Assembly: GCA_965287045.1 (NCBI GenBank) | Contig: OZ336878.1 | Location: 38,936,001 to 39,000,000, forward strand | Origin: Carcharhinus amblyrhynchos | Taxonomy: Eukaryota | Direction: 5' to 3' | DNA: 64,000 nucleotides | Shown here: positions 4,760 through 45,404 of the stretch, piece by piece | Position numbering within the stretch: position 1 is the first letter of the stretch | How the letters are laid out: every line of letters begins with the position of its first letter | The notes under the pieces: generated by a model | What the model saw: only the letters and a program-made list of their open reading frames with translations | Databases searched by the model: none | Told to the model about the DNA's origin: nothing | Made by a program: the position numbers and the translations under genes

Positions 4760-5225
4760 GTGTCCACTTGCTTGGATGAGTACAGCTCCAACAATTGTCA
4801 AGCGGCTTGATACCATCTGTGACAAAGCCACACTTATGATTGGTACACAATCATGAACCTTCACTTCCTCCACCACTGATGCACTGTGGTAGCATCTACT
4901 TTACGTATTACAGCAATTTGCTAAGGCTTCTTCAGCAGCACCTTCAAAACCCATGACCTCTACCACCTAGAAGGTCAAGGGCAGCTGATGGAATGCTACC
5001 AACTGCAAATTCACTTGGAACTATATCACCACTCCTGTCCTGTTGCTGGATCAAAGTCATGAAACTGCCTTACTAACAGCATTATGAGTGCACCTACATT
5101 ACATTGCATCGTCAGTGGCGGTTCAAAAAGGAAGCTTGCCACCACCTTCTCAAGGGCATTTAAGGATGGACAGTAAATGATGGCTTAGCCAGTGACATCC
5201 ATATCCTATGAACAAATTTTAAAAA
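4760..5225 (+). mobile_element. L2-type LINE 3' fragment
   Basis: ccacttgcttggatgagtacagctccaacaa...ccaccaccttctcaagggca...gccagtgacatccatatcc; the same 3' end occurs inverted at ~10760-10850. Confidence 0.7.
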
Positions 5226-5794
5226 TTTCAAAAACAATGATAAAAAAGTGGTTAGAAACCTTAATTGGTAAATTTCTAGCGTGGCTGTCGAACAAAGGGA
5301 TCTAAGTAATATATAATTTGGGATTATATCAGTGGAAATCAAATACCAGCACAGAAGTAGTTATTCCTGTACAGTATGATTAGGTCATATCCGTAATACC
5401 TTATGCATACTCACTCATGGAAAGAATAGCCCTAGAACAAATGCAAAACAGATAACAGGGATATGGGGTATCTGCTAGTGGAGATGAATTTTATATTCTC
5501 TCGGACTGAGAAATTTAATAGAGGTGTGCAAAATGATGATGGAATAAATGACAGACATTTTAATTGATAAAATCAGGATGAGATCACAATTTTAAAATAA
5601 GATACTTGAAGGGAAATATTAGAAAGCTTCTTCAAGGAAAGAATGTGGAATGCTTTGCTAGAAACTGGTGTTAGATTCCAACTTGATTGAAGCATTTAGC
5701 AAGTTATGGATGATGAAGGAAACAAAAAAATTGTTGGGAATAATGCAGTAAGATGTTCCTGTAAATTGTGGCCTACATTCAGCACAAAAATTGT

Positions 5795-6216
5795 GAACTT
5801 GCCAACTAATCAGTGCTCTTTTCTCATGTAGTATAAATTGTTGCTCCCAGTCTTCCATCTGTGATGAGGCAAGACAAAAGGTTTTGACAGCACAAGTGGC
5901 ACGGTATTAGCACTGCTGCCTCACAGCACCAGGGACCCAGGCTTGATTCCCGGTTTGGGTCATTGTGTGGAGTTTGCACATTCTCCTCGTGTCTGCGTGA
6001 GTTTCCTCTAAGTGCTCTGGTTTCCCCTCTCAATCCAAAGATGTGCAGGTTAGGTTCATTAGCCATGGTAAATTGCTCCTTAGTGCTAGAAGGGACAACT
6101 AGGGTACAGGGATAGGGACTGGATGAGATTGTGGTCAGCACAGACTAGATGGGCCAAATAGCCTCCTTCTGCACTGTAGGGATTCTATGGACAGCATGTC
6201 TCTTTTTACAGAAATA
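5795..6216 (+). repeat. Hammerhead-motif repeat, copy 1 (split by a SINE)
   Basis: 5795-5892 plus 6190-6216 align with 8050-8185; contains GTGATGAG-gcaaga-CAAAAGGTTTT-GACAG at 5861-5890. Confidence 0.65.
5893..6189 (+). mobile_element. tRNA-derived SINE (HE1/V-SINE-like) with CR1-type tail
   Basis: Head tggcacggtattagcactgctgcctcacagc...gattccc, central gtgtggagtttgcacattctcc; flanked by a 7-bp TSD gacagca (5886-5892, 6190-6196). Confidence 0.9.
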
Positions 6217-6910
6217 TTTAAATTTAAACAATATTTTTAAAAAAGCTAGCATCAGTAATAGGGAATATGAAAGTACAGGATTGTTAGAAAAATTCATCAG
6301 ATTCAATGTTTCTGAGGCAACTTTTCAGCAGAAGCCTCAGTAATATCCCAAGTGTTATTCCATACCATGCTTAGAGGTTTCTTATGCTTTCTAAGTTGCA
6401 CCATCCAAAAATGTTGGTTCAATTCAGACCTTCTGAAGACAATGTTAAGATGGAGATGCATGATGTATTCTCATTAATTGAAAGTCTTTATATTTGGAGT
6501 TATCGTGATGTAAAATGATCACAGTTACCTTTTGTATTCTGTAACTGGTTTGTCGATTATCATGATCTTGCAAACTATTAGCTTAGGAACTGATCAAAAG
6601 GTTTTATAAAAATACGTGGGCATCACTGGCAAGACCAGAATTTATTGCCTATGCCTAATTGTCCTAGAAGGTAGTGATCAGCTGCCTTTTTGAATGCAAC
6701 AGAGTGGTTTGCTGGGCCAATTCATATAGCATTTAAGAGTTGACTACCATGGATCTGGAGTGACGTGTAAGTCAGACCATGTCAGGTCAGCACATTTTCT
6801 TGAAGGACATGAGTGAATCAGATGGGGTTTTATGACAAACTTCTAGTTTTATGATCCCCGTTAATGATCCTAGTTTTTTATTTGATGTTTAAAATAATTT
6901 TAAATTTAAA

Positions 6911-8185
6911 TATTGCTGAAAAAAGAAATGTACTGTTGAAGCATTTTGTCTTGCCTTATCAGGACAGGCAGAAGAAAGGGAACAACAATTAATACAACAT
7001 GAGAAAAGGGCACTGATTGATTGGCAAGTCCACTTTGGCTTAGGCATTGCCATGGGGAATGCACTAGGGAATTATTGTCCCCCATGCTTTTATTTAATTT
7101 TTAACAAGGCCCAATGCCTGGACATGTACTTTTTGCCTGCAGAGGACAGGAGCCTGTGTATGAATATAGCATCCAGTAGATGTGAAGTAAGCCACATCAT
7201 GAGCCAAACTGACAATCTTAAATTTGTTAGTGTAATTCTTAGCACACTTGGGATTGTTGTCAAAGCTATCCAATCACAGAATCAGGCCACCACCTTTGGA
7301 CCTGAGAAATGACTAGTCTACCTCAAATTACCTTAAAATATCTCAACGATTTGAACAGATGAAACTTGCCATTTTACACTGCTGCTATGCAGTAGCCATG
7401 ATGTGGAGATGCCGGTGTTGAATTGGGGTAAACACAGTAAGAAGTCTCACAGCACTAGGTTAAAGTTCAACCAGTTTATTTGATAGTAAAACCACAAGCT
7501 TGTGGATTTACTATCAAATAAACTGGTTGGACTTTAACCTGGTGTGTGAGACTTCTTGCTATGCAGTAGCAACAGGAGTGATAATTTCCATTAACAGGTT
7601 GCTGCTGTCAAGCCAAAAATATCCTGCCTGTCACACAAATGAGTAGTGTGATTTATGAATTTTAGTGCCATTAGGATGCCATCAGATTGTACCAAAGAAC
7701 ATGTCCCTTCATCTGTTTGCATTAGCTGGAGTACTGCCTATACTCTAGCAGCATATGCTTACAAAACTCAGAACATAATATCTAATATTAGATGTGATTC
7801 CATGATTTAACAGTACTAGCTGAGCAACCCTGTGTGTGCTAAAAGCTACATTAACAACCAGGTAAAGATTATCTGTTGAGGTCACAATTCACTTAATGCT
7901 TACTAGAAGCTACATGTATTCATTTGCAAGGACCTGTTATCTGCAAGCAAAAGGAACATAGTCATTGCATCTTCTGTATTAAATAAAAGCATAAAGAGGA
8001 ACTAGTTCCCTGGTGCATTCTCCAGAGCAACATCTCAATTATTCTGAGTCAACTTATCAACCAATTAGCATCCATTTTCATGCAGTACAGATGGTTGCTC
8101 CCTTTGAAATTTGGTATTCTCGTGTTTGTCCTAATGAGCACAAGACGAATAGCTTTGACTAGCATGTCTTTTTTTTCAGGAATAC
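6911..8185. mobile_element. ~1.3 kb element with ~190-bp diverged inverted termini carrying hammerhead-like motifs (Penelope-like affinity inferred)
   Basis: 6911-7096 (tattgctgaaaaaaga...gaatgcactagggaa...atgcttttatttaa) is the reverse complement of 7980-8185 (taaataaaagcat...ttccctggtgcattc...tcttttttttcaggaata). Confidence 0.7.
7397..7556. mobile_element. Fold-back (palindromic) short element, copy 1
   Basis: Leader gatgtggagatgccgg; ~119-bp near-perfect palindrome 7439-7557 centred on ccacAAGCTTgtgg; 14-bp TSD tgctatgcagtagc at 7383-7396 and 7557-7570. Confidence 0.85.
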
Positions 8186-10754
8186 ATCAAGTTCTGTAGT
8201 ATTAAGCACCTAATTGATTTTAAATTGCCTAGTGGTCCTGGAATTTGAATTTGTGTTGCCAGATCATTAGTTGAAAGCTCTGGATAACGAGTCCAGTAAA
8301 ATAATCAATATGCTACCATACCCATTGGCTTTATTTGGTTAGGAATTGCTAGGTGTACTTGATGTACCACAGGCATCATAGCAATCTCATCTTCAAGAGA
8401 TTCTTCAACATATTAAAGACAAATACAACTGCTGCACAGAATTGCCCTTTTATGGATTTCAGACAAAACGGAAATTCAAGATCATAATATTTGCAGCAAT
8501 AAACAATGTGATGCAATTACAAATGAGTTAGTAACTCGTAAAAATTACCAGGAGTCAATGCACACCTGGACACCAGGACGCTCATAAAATGTAATAGTAT
8601 ACTTTGTATTGCTGCTCTGTGAGTTACACTGCTACTTGAGTTATTGGCTAATGTAGGTTTCTACACAGCAAACCATATTGGAAATTTTCAGGAGTCTGTC
8701 CGTTCCAACATTTTGAATTAACCTTCTAACAATCTTCATTGTTAGAAGACTGACTTTGTATTTGTTAGGATCTTATGGCTGTTAGCACCAGCTATCTTTG
8801 TTCTTGTATTTTGCCAGTCTTTTTTGTATGTTCTCAGTTAACCTCTATAAAATACTTCTAATTCAAATTAGCTATTGGATTCACAAACCAATGAATGCTG
8901 CCAAATGAATGTTGGGCAACCATAACCCTCATTGATCAGGCCTGGCATTGAATATCAAAGTGCTTATTTGTCAAACAACTTTGTGGAAGGAACATGTTTA
9001 CCATGAGAAGCTGAAATAACCAGTTTAATTTTTTGACAGGATACCGATTAATGACTAAAATAATTATTACCAAGCAAAGGGCTACAAAATATCATGTTTA
9101 ATTGGGAAACAAAATAATTTGCATCAGCTGCTGAAGCTGAGAGCTAATTTTCCACAATGTAGGAGAGAACAAAGATCACCACTTGGCATGCAAAATGTGG
9201 AGGTACATCATTAAGATCTCGTAGGGAAAACGTATGTTTACACCTAGATAATCTTGGTCATGGTTCCATTATGACAAGGAAATATAGAAAATTTGGGAAT
9301 GGAATTTTGAGGAAATGTTACCAAGTAATTAATAACTGGGCCTGCTTTGTGTGAACTACATCTTGTTTAGAGAGTAATGATTATTGGAAAGTGAACTGTC
9401 CTCTGATAAAACTTTAAATGCAGTATTGGATGGCATATTTATACAGACTGGTACAATGTTTGGCCAGTTTACAAAATGCAGTATTCAATATTTGAAATTG
9501 AAATTTAAAGATATTCCATTATTTCTAAAACTAAGTATCTAGTATTATCTTTATGTTGCTTTCACCAAGATACCAAAATTTTACTGCAAATTGAAAAATT
9601 GCTTTTTCATAGATGATTTTAAAAACCTTCAACCTTGCAGTTTATATTGTATGAATCTCATTGAACTATATCAAATGAGACATGTATAACATATACAACA
9701 TGTTCACCTCAGAGGTGGTGCAAGTAAAACCAATTGATAAAACTAACAAGATGATAATGTTTGCATCTTGAAACATGGACGAAAAATTTTTCTAACCATG
9801 TAAGTTTTCAGTTAAGCAGTAATGGCCAGTATCTATTATTGTGTGGATTTTAACCTTTGGCTGCAAATCTTAGGATTTTAACCTTTGGCTTCAGCCTAGT
9901 GTAAGTTCAGCCTGTACTACTACTGGTCTGCCAGCACCCTACAGGTAATGCAGGCAACTTGACAGATTGTGCAAGATTTTTTTTTGTTACTGCTGTGTCT
10001 TTAAAAGCAGGTAATGTTAGGATTTATGTTTTTCAAATAGCATGAAACCTGCAGGTAGTGATTGCAAGTTTCCAGTGATATTATTTTGATAGACATTTCA
10101 CTACATTGAGAACAAACATTTCAACTGCAAGTGCATTGCAATATTTTCTTTTTACAATAAATGTGTTTTTGTAAGTTTGTCTTAAGACTTCATTGGACTG
10201 GCCAAAAGAATTGGCAATCATGCTCATGCAGCACACTACAAATCTGTTTTTATGTAATTGCTATCCATATTCCTGTTTGAGATGTTTTTTTCCATTGTAT
10301 TATTTTTATTTTTGTTTAGTTCTTCATTGCCCGAACAACAAGTGTCCCAGTGTAGAAGAAAAAAAATGGACGGCAAGCTAGGAGTGACAAAACCCTTGGC
10401 CAGACGGTTTGGCTTTTAGGAGAGTTTTAAAAAAATTGAAGAATTCAGGCTAGAATTGCATAGTGCTGTGATCCAGGCAGATAAAGGTAAGGTGCTAACA
10501 GTAGGGCAAAACTAAATAACCGTAATGCACAAAGTAAGGCCAGAGTAAGAGGAATAGAAAATTTTATTTAAGACTTGGTTAGAGCCATTTTGATGCCATG
10601 ACAGGGACAGAAACCTCAAGAGAGTCAAATGGAGTTGAAAAAGATGAACATAGTTGTGAGGAGTTACTCTAAGTTCAAAGTATATAGAGGGTAGGGAGTT
10701 CATGGATGGCATGATGATGGCAGTTTGCAAAAAGGGAGGACAGTGCCTGAAAAC

Positions 10755-23800: not shown

Positions 23801-25044
23801 TGGTCACGATTCTCCCATCGTGACCTGCAACATTTCTGTTGGGTCAAGGTGGGAGATGAGTGTCGCTGGCCTTGTACTGGGATTTACGCATGCGCCGGGA
23901 ACACGTGTGCATCTCCCAGAGCCAGTGAACGGTTGCCGGTCAGACCATGCTGGAAACCAGCGGGAAGGTAGGTAAATAATTTGAATCATTCTAAAATTTA
24001 TTTTAAATATGTTTTAAATGTGATTATTGGAAACTTACAGGTCCCAACTGAATCTCCCACACTGATGTTCCGGCAGGGTTTAGACTAGCTCCTCACGTTC
24101 GGGGAATAGCAGGAGAACACCGCTGGAATAAAGGGGAGCAATCAGGGCCCTCCAGGGGCTCGGGCAGCAGGGGGTGGTGCTCCTTGGGCATGGGCACCCT
24201 GGTAGTACCAGCCTGTGCTCCCTGGTACTGCTCAAAAGGCTGGCAAGGGGTGTTCCTTGGCACTGTCCATCATGCATTGGATAGTGCCAAGTGCCTAATG
24301 TGGGCGGGCCTGTTGGGGGGGTGGGGTGGTATCCCGCTGCCTCTCTGCAGACAGGATCGGTCTGGGTTGGGGAGGCAGCAATTGGGGCAGGCTGGGGGGT
24401 GGGGGTTGGTCAGCTGGGGGGGAGTCTGACCCCAGGGGAATGGGGTGTCAGCAGGGGTGATCTGCCGGGTGAGGGGGTGGGAGATTGCCACTGCTGGGGA
24501 AGTGGTGGGCTGTGCATCGGAGTGCTCCGGGTGGGGTGGCGGCGGTGGGGCGGTTGGGGGGGACAGGGCAGTTGGGGCGGGGGAAGCGTGGGGGTGGGGG
24601 GCGGTGGGGGGCGGGGGGTGGGGGGGACAGTGGTGGGGGGCGGTAGGGGGTGGTGGGGGGCGGGGGGTGGGGGGGACGGTGGTGGTGGGGGGCGGGCGGT
24701 GGGGTGGGGAAGCAATAGGACTGGCCTGGGAATTGTTGAGGAGGGGGTGCAATTGGACCTGTGGGGGGAGGACTGGAGGAGCAGCACTGCAGGGGGCCCG
24801 GGCTGGCCTGCAATCGGGGAGACTGACAGATTGGGGCCACTGTGCCTGCGCAGAGTTCCAGAACTGCCAGACTCCAGTGTGAATAGGCCCTGCCCCCCCC
24901 CACTTCGGTTTTTAATGAGATTCACAACTGGGACCTCTCCAGCGCACAGAGTGCTGAGATTTGGGTGAAAAGCTGAACTGAGAAAACAGTTGGGATCTAG
25001 AACAGTTTTCTGCCAATTCAGTGCTTTTGAGAGAATTGTGGCCC
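23801..25044. mobile_element. GC-rich TIR element (PIF/Harbinger-like non-autonomous)
   Basis: Ends tggtcacgattctccc / gagagaattgtggccc are inverted at 12/16 positions; GC/CpG-rich interior contrasts with the flanks. Confidence 0.55.
24380..24780 (+). repeat. G-rich low-complexity tract (G-quadruplex potential)
   Basis: Dense GGG to G7 runs separated by 1-7 nt. Confidence 0.9.
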
Positions 25045-42470: not shown

Positions 42471-42722
42471 AAACGTAAGGAGTAACAATAGGGAGAGTGC
42501 GAGTGTGAACTCATTGAGCCTCTGTATCCAGCAGTATTAATGCTAATGTCATACATATCATCGCCTTCTTCCCACACAGCTCTTAGTGCCTTCCCTACGC
42601 ATTAATACGTGGCGGTCTCACCGGTTTCCAGCAGAGTTTGAGAACTAGGGTTTTTTTTAGGGAGGGAGGTTGGAATCTGAAGCAACCGTTTCAAGTTTAG
42701 CAGCAATCTCTTGTGAAAAGTA

Positions 42723-43146
42723 ATGGAATTGCGCACGGAGCTTTCTGCCACCCAGACTACTCCGACAGCCATACCTGTGTCAGTGTCGGGGACTCTCCTC
42801 CGCGCTCCGCCTTTGCTGCTACGTGCCACCGAAAAGTACCCGAGGACTCCCAAGTGCGCCCGATGCAGAAACCACGGGGTCGTCTCAGCGCTGAAGGGCC
42901 ACAAACGCTACTGTCGCTGGAAGGATTGCATGTGCGCCAAGTGCACCCTGATCGCCGAGAGGCAGAGAGTGATGGCGGCTCAGGTAGCTCTGAGGAGGCA
43001 GCAGGCACAGGAAGAGAACGAAGCCCGAGAGCTGCAACTTCTGTACGGGACGGCAGAAGGATTGGCCATCGCAGCCGCCAACGGCATGATCCCGTCCCGA
43101 TCTTCTTACGACGTGTTTGGTTCGGTCTGCTCCGAGGGTAACACAG
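42723..43146 (+). CDS. DMRTA2: Doublesex/mab-3-related transcription factor A2 (DMRT5), coding exon 1 with DM zinc-binding domain
   Basis: MELRTEL...[85 protein letters not shown]; Kozak gtaATGG; phase-1 donor ACAG|gtaaaa. Confidence 0.97.
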
Positions 43147-44532
43147 GTAAAAAAAAGATTATTTTCCAAAAGTTTTGAAAACTTTTATCTGGTCGATTGA
43201 AAATTGCCTGTTCACTCTCACAGTGATTAATCTCAGAGAGATAAATTCAAAATCCAGATGATGAATCCGTTTTTGTAGAAAGGTTTCTGCCTCAAAAATC
43301 TTGCGTTTATTTAAGAACATGATAATAAAACTTTTATAATTATTCAATGTGTACCTTGTTTGATGAGTTATTTTAACATGTCCAAATCAATTAGGTAATG
43401 GTTTTTCAAGATCAAATTTACTAACTCGGGAAGTTTGATCTTGAGAGAAGATTTAGACAAGTTCACATCGCCCTGGCCTCTCCTGCCATTCACACTCAGT
43501 GGAGTTTTCCTTAGGCCGCGGATGTGCAATGTAATTCTGTAAAACCTGATTTAGTGGATACCTCGCCCGTTATGTTCTTATGTTTTAGAATCTAAACTTT
43601 CAACTCAGTATGATTTAGATTAAAAAAAGACATTTTTCTGCTGTGGAAATTGGCGTGTAATTGACCAATTATTGGGATTGCATTATCTCAGTGATGATGA
43701 TACCTATTCTCTTCAGAGAACATTGTTGTATTTCTGTCCACTTCCCGCCTACAGATTAAAGAGTATTTATACCATTTTATGGTGCATAAAAGAATAGGAA
43801 TAATGTGAATTTGCCGCCTATCCAAATGTAAACCGACACACACAAGGCAATCGGTTTAACAACATTTGATTACAGCACACGCTATTTCCTGTAAATCCAC
43901 ATTGTGAAATAATGAAATGCCATTTAGTAATGCATGAAACTAATTAACATATCGGGAGAATTGGTTTATTTCAGAATAATTTGCACAACAATTTGTCTTA
44001 ATCTTAAAACACCGCGGTGTTTGTTTTCCCCTCCTTGAGTAAATCTTCAAATGGATCGTTATCAGATTCGTTCAATGGGAGAAGCCGTTTACCAGACCTT
44101 AATTTGAAAAATAACATTATTCAATTAAAAGTAATGATTAAGAAGCAAAGTAATTCCAAATACTATTTAAATAGAGCGCTTACAAAAAAATGTTTGAATA
44201 ATCACTCCTTACTTGGGGAGCGGCTTCAAGTTCTGAAAAATCTAATATTAGGAATTGTTATAAATTTTTACTGTCATATTTCGCCCTCTGACTCTGAAAG
44301 CAGTTTATTCAAGCGCAGTACATATAATGGTAAATAAAATTACCAATGTCAAGTTGTTAATTGTCAGATGTAACCTGAGCATGCCATCAGGAACTTTCAG
44401 AATTCCACTGTTTCTTTCTTATTTACAACTGGTCATGTCTTTATAAAGAATGACTGACTGTAGGAGAATCTTCCAGAAAAATACCACATTGGATTACAAT
44501 AGTTTAAAACATTTTGCATCTTTGATTTGCAG
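43147..44532 (+). other. DMRTA2: DMRTA2 intron (1386 bp, GT-AG, phase 1)
   Basis: gtaaaa...tttgatttgcag; splicing gives G+AA (Glu) in frame with the exon 2 ORF. Confidence 0.92.
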
Positions 44533-45404
44533 AAACTAAACTCCAGAAGTACGAATTATTTCAAAAGAGTTTATTGCCACGGGCGGGAACTCCACAGCAG
44601 TCCTTAGTCAAGCCCATAGTCGGGGACAGCGAGTCGGGGACTGGCAGTGTTCCTGGGACTTCATCGCCAGATATTCGCCACGGATCTGGGTCCGAGAACG
44701 GAGACGGAGAATCATTCCTTAGCTCTCCCATCTGTAAGGTTCTTAAAGAAGGGCAGGATAGTCCAAGGACCATCACGCCACTGGGCTCTGATTCTGGGTC
44801 AGAGGCAGAAAAGGACGAGAGAGACGGCACCCCCTCCACGGGTGCCCGTCAGAGGACTCCCATTGAAATTCTAACCAGAGTCTTTCCTTCGCACAAGAGA
44901 AGCGTTCTGGAGCTGGTCCTGCAAGGTTGCGCAGGGGATATTGTCCAAGCCATCGAGCAGATTCTCAACAACAGAGAGCAAGAAAAGGTTTCCGAAGAAA
45001 CTTGGCACCGTGACAGGACTCATCAGACTGTCCAAGGACCTACATCACATCGACCTCTGGTTGCTGGGGCCGTGCCTCCTGCCATTGGGACTCTGGGCAA
45101 CAGGTCCGCGTTCTCACCTCTGCAGCCCAATGCGGCCCATTTTACTACAGATCCCAACGCCTATGCCATTGGGCCACATCTAGGACTCAATCCTCTTCGC
45201 TTAGCATATTCAGCCCATAGTAGGGGACTTGCTTTCATGACGCCTTACTCCACAACCGGCCTTGTCCCAACACTGGGCTTTCGTCCACCAATGGATTACG
45301 CCTTCAGCGACCTCATGCGAGATAGGTCCAACTTACACAAAGATCAAGTATACACTAATGGACTTTACGGATCAGTTGTAAATAATAACCCGGATAAACA
45401 GTAA
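44533..45404 (+). CDS. DMRTA2: DMRTA2 coding exon 2 (DMA domain and conserved C-terminus); spliced protein 431 aa
   Basis: [41 protein letters not shown] (DMA domain), [16 protein letters not shown]...[18 protein letters not shown]; stop TAA at 45402-45404. Confidence 0.97.

Follow-up and report, generated by a model that had tools for sequence, protein, structure and literature searches.

Hammerhead ribozymes of Penelope-like elements (PLEs) have been described as type I motifs with an intact core, a G10.1-C11.1 pair, a short stem I and a palindromic stem III that needs a dimer; they lie in the repeat behind the open reading frame (ORF) for a GIY-YIG endonuclease (EN) and occur mostly in single truncated copies (Cervera and De la Pena, 2014, PMC4209133). 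As published, their helix II has 3–8 bp, an extra base usually follows A9 and tertiary contacts are absent (PMC4209133, PMC6155905, PMC7761336), the published descriptor specifies a helix II of 3–7 bp and 'gaaannuh' for stem III, and the alignment rows examined all show at least 3 bp in helix II (PMC4209133). The role of these ribozymes is still called unclear (bioRxiv 10.1101/2021.04.23.441226; PMC7761336), partly because those tested are very slow and are thought to lack tertiary contacts. PLE insertions are typically 5'-truncated, with an inverted copy adjacent at the 5' end and a tail of 30–40 nt; EN+ PLEs are defined by a CCHH motif whose two Cys lie between GIY and YIG, and criteria for the Penelope/Poseidon type come from the same source (bioRxiv 10.1101/2021.04.23.441226).

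Pseudoknots occur in all three hammerhead types and in about 40% of representatives, as a Watson-Crick helix of about 6 bp between the regions of stems I and II (Perreault et al., 2011, PMC3088659). The one-pair stem II example tested in that survey, a bacterial type II ribozyme from a metagenome, needs its pseudoknot for speed, and spacing mattered there. In the PK hammerhead (Zhan et al., 2024, PMC11300833, PDB 8YDC) stem II is likewise a single G10.1-C11.1 pair and the loop forms a 6-bp pseudoknot replacing helix II, the partner strand coming from the loop that closes a 5-bp helix IV, alongside an A-rich triplex linker. Chrysovirus hammerheads with an unbraced 1-bp helix II cut slowly (PMC13725137). 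Poseidon of Anolis carolinensis (PAc; Frangieh et al., 2024, PMC11167929) has a hammerhead at the repeat-ORF junction that cuts 26 nt downstream of the start codon, and its tail is the ORF start; the main text makes no mention of a pseudoknot and reports that catalytic mutants inserted normally in vitro and that no reads ended at the cut.

The window analysed here, a 64,000-nt stretch of the Carcharhinus amblyrhynchos genome (contig OZ336878.1, 38936001–39000000) with 38% GC, holds three decayed hammerhead motifs within copies of a PLE (Table 1). Our reading, which we consider well founded though short of certain, is that they are broken hammerheads in dead PLE repeats, that the intact ribozyme of the family is predicted to carry a pseudoknot brace of 6–7 bp, and that it would likely act as a dimer and cut a few bases upstream of the start codon.

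Table 1. Features of the PLE locus (window positions; c1–c3, copies 1–3).
Feature	Position	Strand	Remarks
c1, PLE terminal repeat, last part	5793..5892	+	82/100 aligned bases identical to c2; three lesions in common with c2
c1, TATA box	5832-5837	+	
c1, decayed hammerhead	5858-5890	+	
Later insertion, presumably SINE-type, splitting c1 directly after the hammerhead	5893..6196	+	Repeat families D4/D6; 7-bp target duplication at 5886-5892 and 6190-6196
c1, remainder (ORF-start tail) and flank, probably duplicated from beside c2	6197..6445	+	72% over 114 nt, E 6e-12
c2, 5'-truncated PLE, inverted partner abutting c3 at 7284	6903..7284	-	
c2, decayed hammerhead	6933-6967	-	
c2, end of GIY-YIG frame	7258-7100	-	Terminal repeat follows
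c3, 5'-truncated PLE, RT-thumb/EN linker to terminal repeat and ORF-start tail	7284..8215	+	blastn E 4e-63, 5e-17, 7e-34; tblastn of family model E 9e-30
Later palindromic insertion inside c3	7397..7556	.	77-87% to Neptune-type ends of L112 and L130; 14-bp target duplication at 7383-7396 and 7557-7570
c3, GIY-YIG remnant	7560-7974	+	
c3, predicted pseudoknot strand	8118..8124	+	Complementary to loop II 8139-8145; 6/7 pairs still possible
c3, decayed hammerhead	8126..8162	+	Predicted cut after 8156
c3, first codons of PLE ORF ('tail')	8164..8215	+	ATG at 8164
DMRTA-type gene, one of two exons	42717-43175	+	DM, DMA and DMRT5_DMB domains (both exons)
DMRTA-type gene, other exon	44526-45401	+	

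The three motif strings pointed out in the earlier note lie where it placed them, sit inside longer homologous stretches and exceed chance: with the 27 specified bases of the family motif the window gives two matches at four substitutions (c2 and c3), c1 requiring a 3-nt gap, and none appears in any of 40 order-1 Markov windows. The similarity reaches 80% over 105 nt between c1 and c2 (E 4e-21) and 67% over 210 nt between c2 and c3 (E 1e-8). They are not three separate insertions. Copies 2 and 3, read from 7284 down to 6903 on the minus strand and from 7284 up to 8215 on the plus strand, meet at their truncated 5' ends and are one inverted insertion in the usual PLE arrangement, which is also found at another locus of the family (L030). 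Copy 1 probably arose when the end of c2 was duplicated locally in inverted orientation, and the presumed SINE split it afterwards. The two copies have in common the loss of 1 nt from the loop, G12-to-A and the deletion of 13 nt upstream, and the first ~100 nt of the c1 flank match only this locus among all loci collected. The palindrome inside c3 consists of two Neptune-type PLE terminal-repeat ends, head to head, joined within the palindrome of stem III at a point 3 nt short of the predicted cut; it also accounts for the miRNA matches that Rfam gives in 5000–9000.

A catalytic base is lost in each copy, as expected of inactive ribozymes, and the window copies are dead and of no functional interest in themselves. 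In c1, C3 and two stem I bases are missing in addition to the G12 change; c2 has G8-to-A beside G12-to-A, and its first stem I pair is broken; c3 has G5-to-A (8133) and A15.1-to-U (8150). These lesions were described in the note as largely different; c1 and c2, however, have several in common. An orthologue comparison was made for c3: contigs of four other organisms span it at ~97–99% identity and none lists a difference at 8150, which makes the A15.1 lesion look old and common to all four. Retention in these organisms, together with a DM-domain gene at 42.7–45.4 kb, might suggest that the host has co-opted the locus, for instance as a regulator 35 kb upstream of this DMRTA-type gene. A catalytic base missing from every copy, a lesion that looks common to the four organisms and copies split by two later insertions make this extremely improbable. 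Elsewhere in the window, a G-rich low-complexity tract is found at 24300–24720 (GC 0.52).

Judged from homology, the motifs belong to terminal repeats of an old PLE family with a reverse transcriptase (RT), a C-terminal GIY-YIG domain and no Neptune linker, as the earlier note supposed in calling them fossils of a hammerhead-bearing Penelope-like family; the PLE link is carried by RT and GIY-YIG matches, and cleavage is predicted. Upstream of the motif, the majority reading frame encodes the last part of a GIY-YIG endonuclease. The family model, which covers the C-terminal ~330 codons (N-terminal parts are known as fragments), matches a full-length RT-EN protein containing RVT_1 (P0002) with 42% identity over residues 519–835 (E 1.5e-77); it shows YVDD, GIY-YIG with CxC and later His residues. 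The CCHH motif of EN+ PLEs is present, its Cys pair lying between GIY and YIG. RT and EN are collinear within single genomic copies, and one of these (L035) runs on into the hammerhead. Pfam gives nothing significant for six endonuclease fragments or for a further protein, P0001. A zinc-finger linker CX2-5CxxC between RT and EN is absent from the model and present in an unrelated young family (L112); an assignment to the Neptune clade was dropped for lack of this linker, and by published criteria the family would be of Penelope/Poseidon type. The young Neptune-type family (L112:892-3657, L126–L130; e.g., G000:C15:70551500-70560500) has many open frames of ~917 aa and inverted repeats that are almost identical; its minimal hammerheads are intact and of the classical form, with a long helix II and the extra A, and it looks recently active.

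The shark family is old. Its copies diverge from the model by 11–29% (median 19%; 92 copies), their 3' ends lie 40–80 nt past C3, no intact copy flanked by two repeats was found in the genome, the longest copies spanning P0002 residues 207–724 or 353–790, and a search with the RT for a young member gave a different family. DNA search of the 2.9-Gb genome with c2 gave 2066 first-look candidates, of which 40 were scored, and protein search with an endonuclease fragment gave 7123, of which 150 were scored; neither figure is a copy number. An exact search for the core with G10.1-C11.1 gives 183 matches genome-wide vs 56 for the reversed control, which suggests, as a rough estimate, some 10,000 copies. 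Animal retrozymes have been described as derived from PLE terminal repeats (bioRxiv 10.64898/2026.07.22.740005), and the motifs could on that account belong to a tandem retrozyme, non-autonomous and giving rise to circular RNA. The active retrozymes published there are tandem units; at this locus, however, non-coding head-to-tail units each with a hammerhead are not seen, and the copies hold remnants of the endonuclease frame of variable length and are inverted, so that a retrozyme origin is highly improbable.

Ninety-two copies were gathered without selection on the motif. At family level the type I core is present (CUGANGA, GAAA and UH, with A15.1-U16.1 and the closing pairs), which bears out both the expected type I topology and the family consensus check set in the earlier note; it is found in none of the three window copies. 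CpG decay, claimed in the same place, is evident at two CG sites of the motif (TG 48, CA 24, CG 3 and TG 45, CA 25, CG 4). The loop of six or seven bases proposed there should be read as seven: loop II of the family has 7 nt, a genomic pattern search finds 20 matches with N7 and none with N6, and among the 92 copies only c1 and c2 have six. Core bases are intact in 25 copies, one of which keeps G10.1-C11.1 as well, and 11 of 150 copies, many of them picked for an intact core, keep core, stem I, brace and palindrome together. Conservation of the core columns (0.91) is only slightly above that of the flanks (0.86), a difference from which no selection is inferred. Stem I pairs and covaries at −5/+30 (C-G 42, T-A 11, mixed 18; p=0.002), essentially through one subfamily change, and in relatives it has 4–6 bp with different letters. 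The letters of stem III also vary, and the stem is palindromic in five families and nearly so in a sixth (L165); a 6-nt self-duplex is worth −4.3 kcal/mol. A palindromic stem III unstable in the monomer is what the PLE minimal hammerheads show, and it suits the dimer form anticipated earlier.

The family copies L033–L094 include at least two subfamilies that differ in the length of the 3' UTR and in the fifth pair of stem I (C-G vs U-A), and the brace is kept in them. In ten related loci (L167–L170, L172, L173, L175, L177, L178, L180) core position 3 is U and no longer C, so that a catalytic pair with G8 takes a wobble form; this is kept in all ten except for a change of G5 in L180.

The feature that sets the family apart is loop II. 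In the family alignment its seven bases, which sit on the single G10.1-C11.1 pair of stem II, are the reverse complement of seven bases located one base before stem I. CpG decay has affected this helix too (CA 37, TG 22, CG 4 of 92), and the pattern points to an ancestral brace of six Watson-Crick pairs plus a G-U. Chance would give 7 bp of complementarity no more than 25 nt from stem I in 0.4–0.5% of cases, a figure to be read with the brace having been found post hoc. Among at least 29 related loci from a metagenome scan, the brace occurs in all 15 of the closest among the matches listed (38–58% protein identity to the family model, best segment): a strict scan recovers 12, a relaxed one adds L164 and L178, and L177 was recognised by eye, these last three with one lesion or bulge. 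It occurs in none of the 14 more distant loci among the matches listed, several of which have short flanks; four of these (L183, L184, L190, L191) have minimal hammerheads with a long helix, and L181 is doubtful.

With one sequence per family (the C. amblyrhynchos genome, L164, L165, L167, L171 and L174), all 36 cells of six positions by six families are Watson-Crick pairs, and both sides change at every position. As MAFFT left the brace strands out of register, the pairs were counted by script. The seventh position is G-U in four families, G-A in one and absent in one. A loop paired with its own tail gives 6–7 pairs, and with swapped partners 3–6. The pseudoknot strand ends 6–10 nt before C3, so the geometry varies, and 1–4 nt separate it from stem I. 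A tree of 23 rows, anchored on the model and omitting L166, L168, L172, L175, L176, L179, L189 and L192, unites the braced rows in a single clade; its support is 69, or 84 when L174 is left out. The covariation is strong, yet as the families are related and kin share letters it does not amount to independent sixfold evidence. Nested folding is of unremarkable stability (z from −1.4 to +0.5, seven sequences).

Could the same bases form an ordinary PLE minimal hammerhead whose stem II has two pairs, G-C and a U-A closing five bases, the complementarity of loop and tail being accidental? A second pair is possible in 76 of the 92 copies, and 2-bp stems II are common among hammerheads (PMC3088659). 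The unbroken brace pairing over six families, with changes at each position, has already largely refuted this explanation, and in L164 the second pair fails (A opposite A) while six brace pairs hold; we regard it as very unlikely. The motif of the family is accordingly best described as a predicted pseudoknot-braced type I hammerhead, unlike the published PLE minimal hammerheads: helix II is reduced to one pair, the extra base after A9 is absent and loop II is predicted to pair with the 5' tail. In core, G10.1-C11.1 pair, stem I, stem III, position behind the GIY-YIG ORF and copy structure the family agrees with them. The earlier note was right that stem II has one pair, overlooked the covarying helix and was mistaken in equating this form with the published minimal hammerhead, whose descriptor demands 3–7 bp (PMC4209133). 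The hammerhead-model search that it recommended came back empty: Rfam gives no hammerhead match in the whole window at gathering scores, none in 5000–9000 at E up to 10, and no hammerhead family match in nine related loci at E up to 5.

With the pseudoknot hammerheads the family shares, as judged from covariation, a helix of about 6 bp joining the stem I and II regions (PMC3088659) and the single pair of stem II with a 6-bp loop pseudoknot (PMC11300833). It differs from the tested one-pair example in being a type I motif of an animal retroelement with a stem III predicted to depend on a dimer, and from the PK hammerhead in lacking helix IV and its A-rich triplex linker, helix IV being unable to form in the 1–4 nt available. 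PAc has the same Penelope/Poseidon layout; its cut lies within the ORF, whereas the predicted cut of the braced PLEs lies 3–15 nt upstream of the start codon in three families. A full-text literature search (including PMC6765202, PMC7229834 and PMC10085705) found no description of a pseudoknot-braced PLE hammerhead, though Lunse, Weinberg and Breaker (2017), the Perreault 2011 dataset or preprint supplements could contain one.

Within the element the motif sits between TATA box and start codon. The brace strand begins 30–35 nt after a TATA box in five of six families (L164 has no TATA match), and CCAAT boxes lie upstream in four. Transcription starts at a characteristic, textbook distance from the TATA box, and this spacing implies that the RNA would begin with the brace strand. 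The predicted cut falls 6 nt before the ATG in the shark family, 3 nt in the L167 family and ~15 nt in L165; in L164 the distance from C3 to the first ATG is 78 nt, and no clear start is seen in L171 or L174. The ATG after the cut opens a KFCTTK-type N-terminus, and as these codons resemble the full ORF start of L164, the genomic 3' tails of the copies are, on sequence grounds, ORF starts. The T-rich run behind the motif had been considered as a splice acceptor, an idea dropped since the run encodes the ORF start. Between hammerhead and ORF start, look-alikes of the histone 3' stem-loop (Rfam RF00032) are found in L164 (296–340) and L171 (1319–1365 and 1385–1420), scoring 33.1 and 27.7 bits against a cut-off of 34.

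On the favoured reading, the CCAAT/TATA promoter of the terminal repeat would start the RNA at about the pseudoknot strand, and the first ~40 nt would fold into the core, a 5-bp stem I and the single G10.1-C11.1 pair, with the 7-nt loop II pairing back onto the RNA 5' end and holding stems I and II parallel. Stem III would be unable to close alone, and its palindrome would find its partner in another copy of the motif, that of the next repeat downstream on the tandem transcript. The products of cleavage would be a capped piece of ~40 nt and an uncapped RNA beginning 6 nt before the AUG. In this way the RNA would likely be sorted, what stays uncut serving as template and what is cut as message or unit-length RNA. 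The copies end 40–80 nt past the core, as they would if reverse transcription had, as is likely, begun inside the ORF start.

The same fossils and the same helix would also be expected if the pairing of loop II with the 5' tail were an off-switch or a protein-binding fold and cleavage were minor in the life cycle. In L093, L165 and L171 the fold of minimum energy contains the tail-loop helix around the core and leaves out stem I (from a program that cannot draw pseudoknots), all genomic copies span the cut site, and the anole Poseidon inserts in vitro from uncut RNA (PMC11167929). Yet stem I covaries as well, both at −5/+30 and through its other letters in relatives, conservation of the core bases extends over the families and takes in U3 of the L167 family, and the pseudoknot hammerheads tested require both helices together (PMC3088659, PMC11300833). 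We hold an off-switch to be unlikely, if not negligibly so, and prefer the braced ribozyme.

More tentatively, and with considerable doubt, the proposal may be extended to one Penelope/Poseidon clade reaching from sharks to metagenome hosts: its transcripts might begin with a compact hammerhead that combines a pseudoknot brace of bacterial style with a stem III closing only in a dimer, which would be much faster than the slow minimal PLE ribozymes, would cut only once the second repeat has been transcribed and would decap the RNA 3–15 nt before the AUG, deciding between translation and reverse transcription. Since the published descriptor (PMC4209133), which would miss the braced variant, and Rfam both pass over such motifs, counts of animal ribozymes would be too low. 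Intact natural versions of the braced hammerhead exist in L165, L167 and L171 and in the genomic copies L092, L093 and L094, and a variant whose place between TATA box and start codon is fixed leads to sharp predictions for brace mutants, dimer dependence and cap loss. If the proposal is true, these elements would provide the first tractable system for what PLE hammerheads do.
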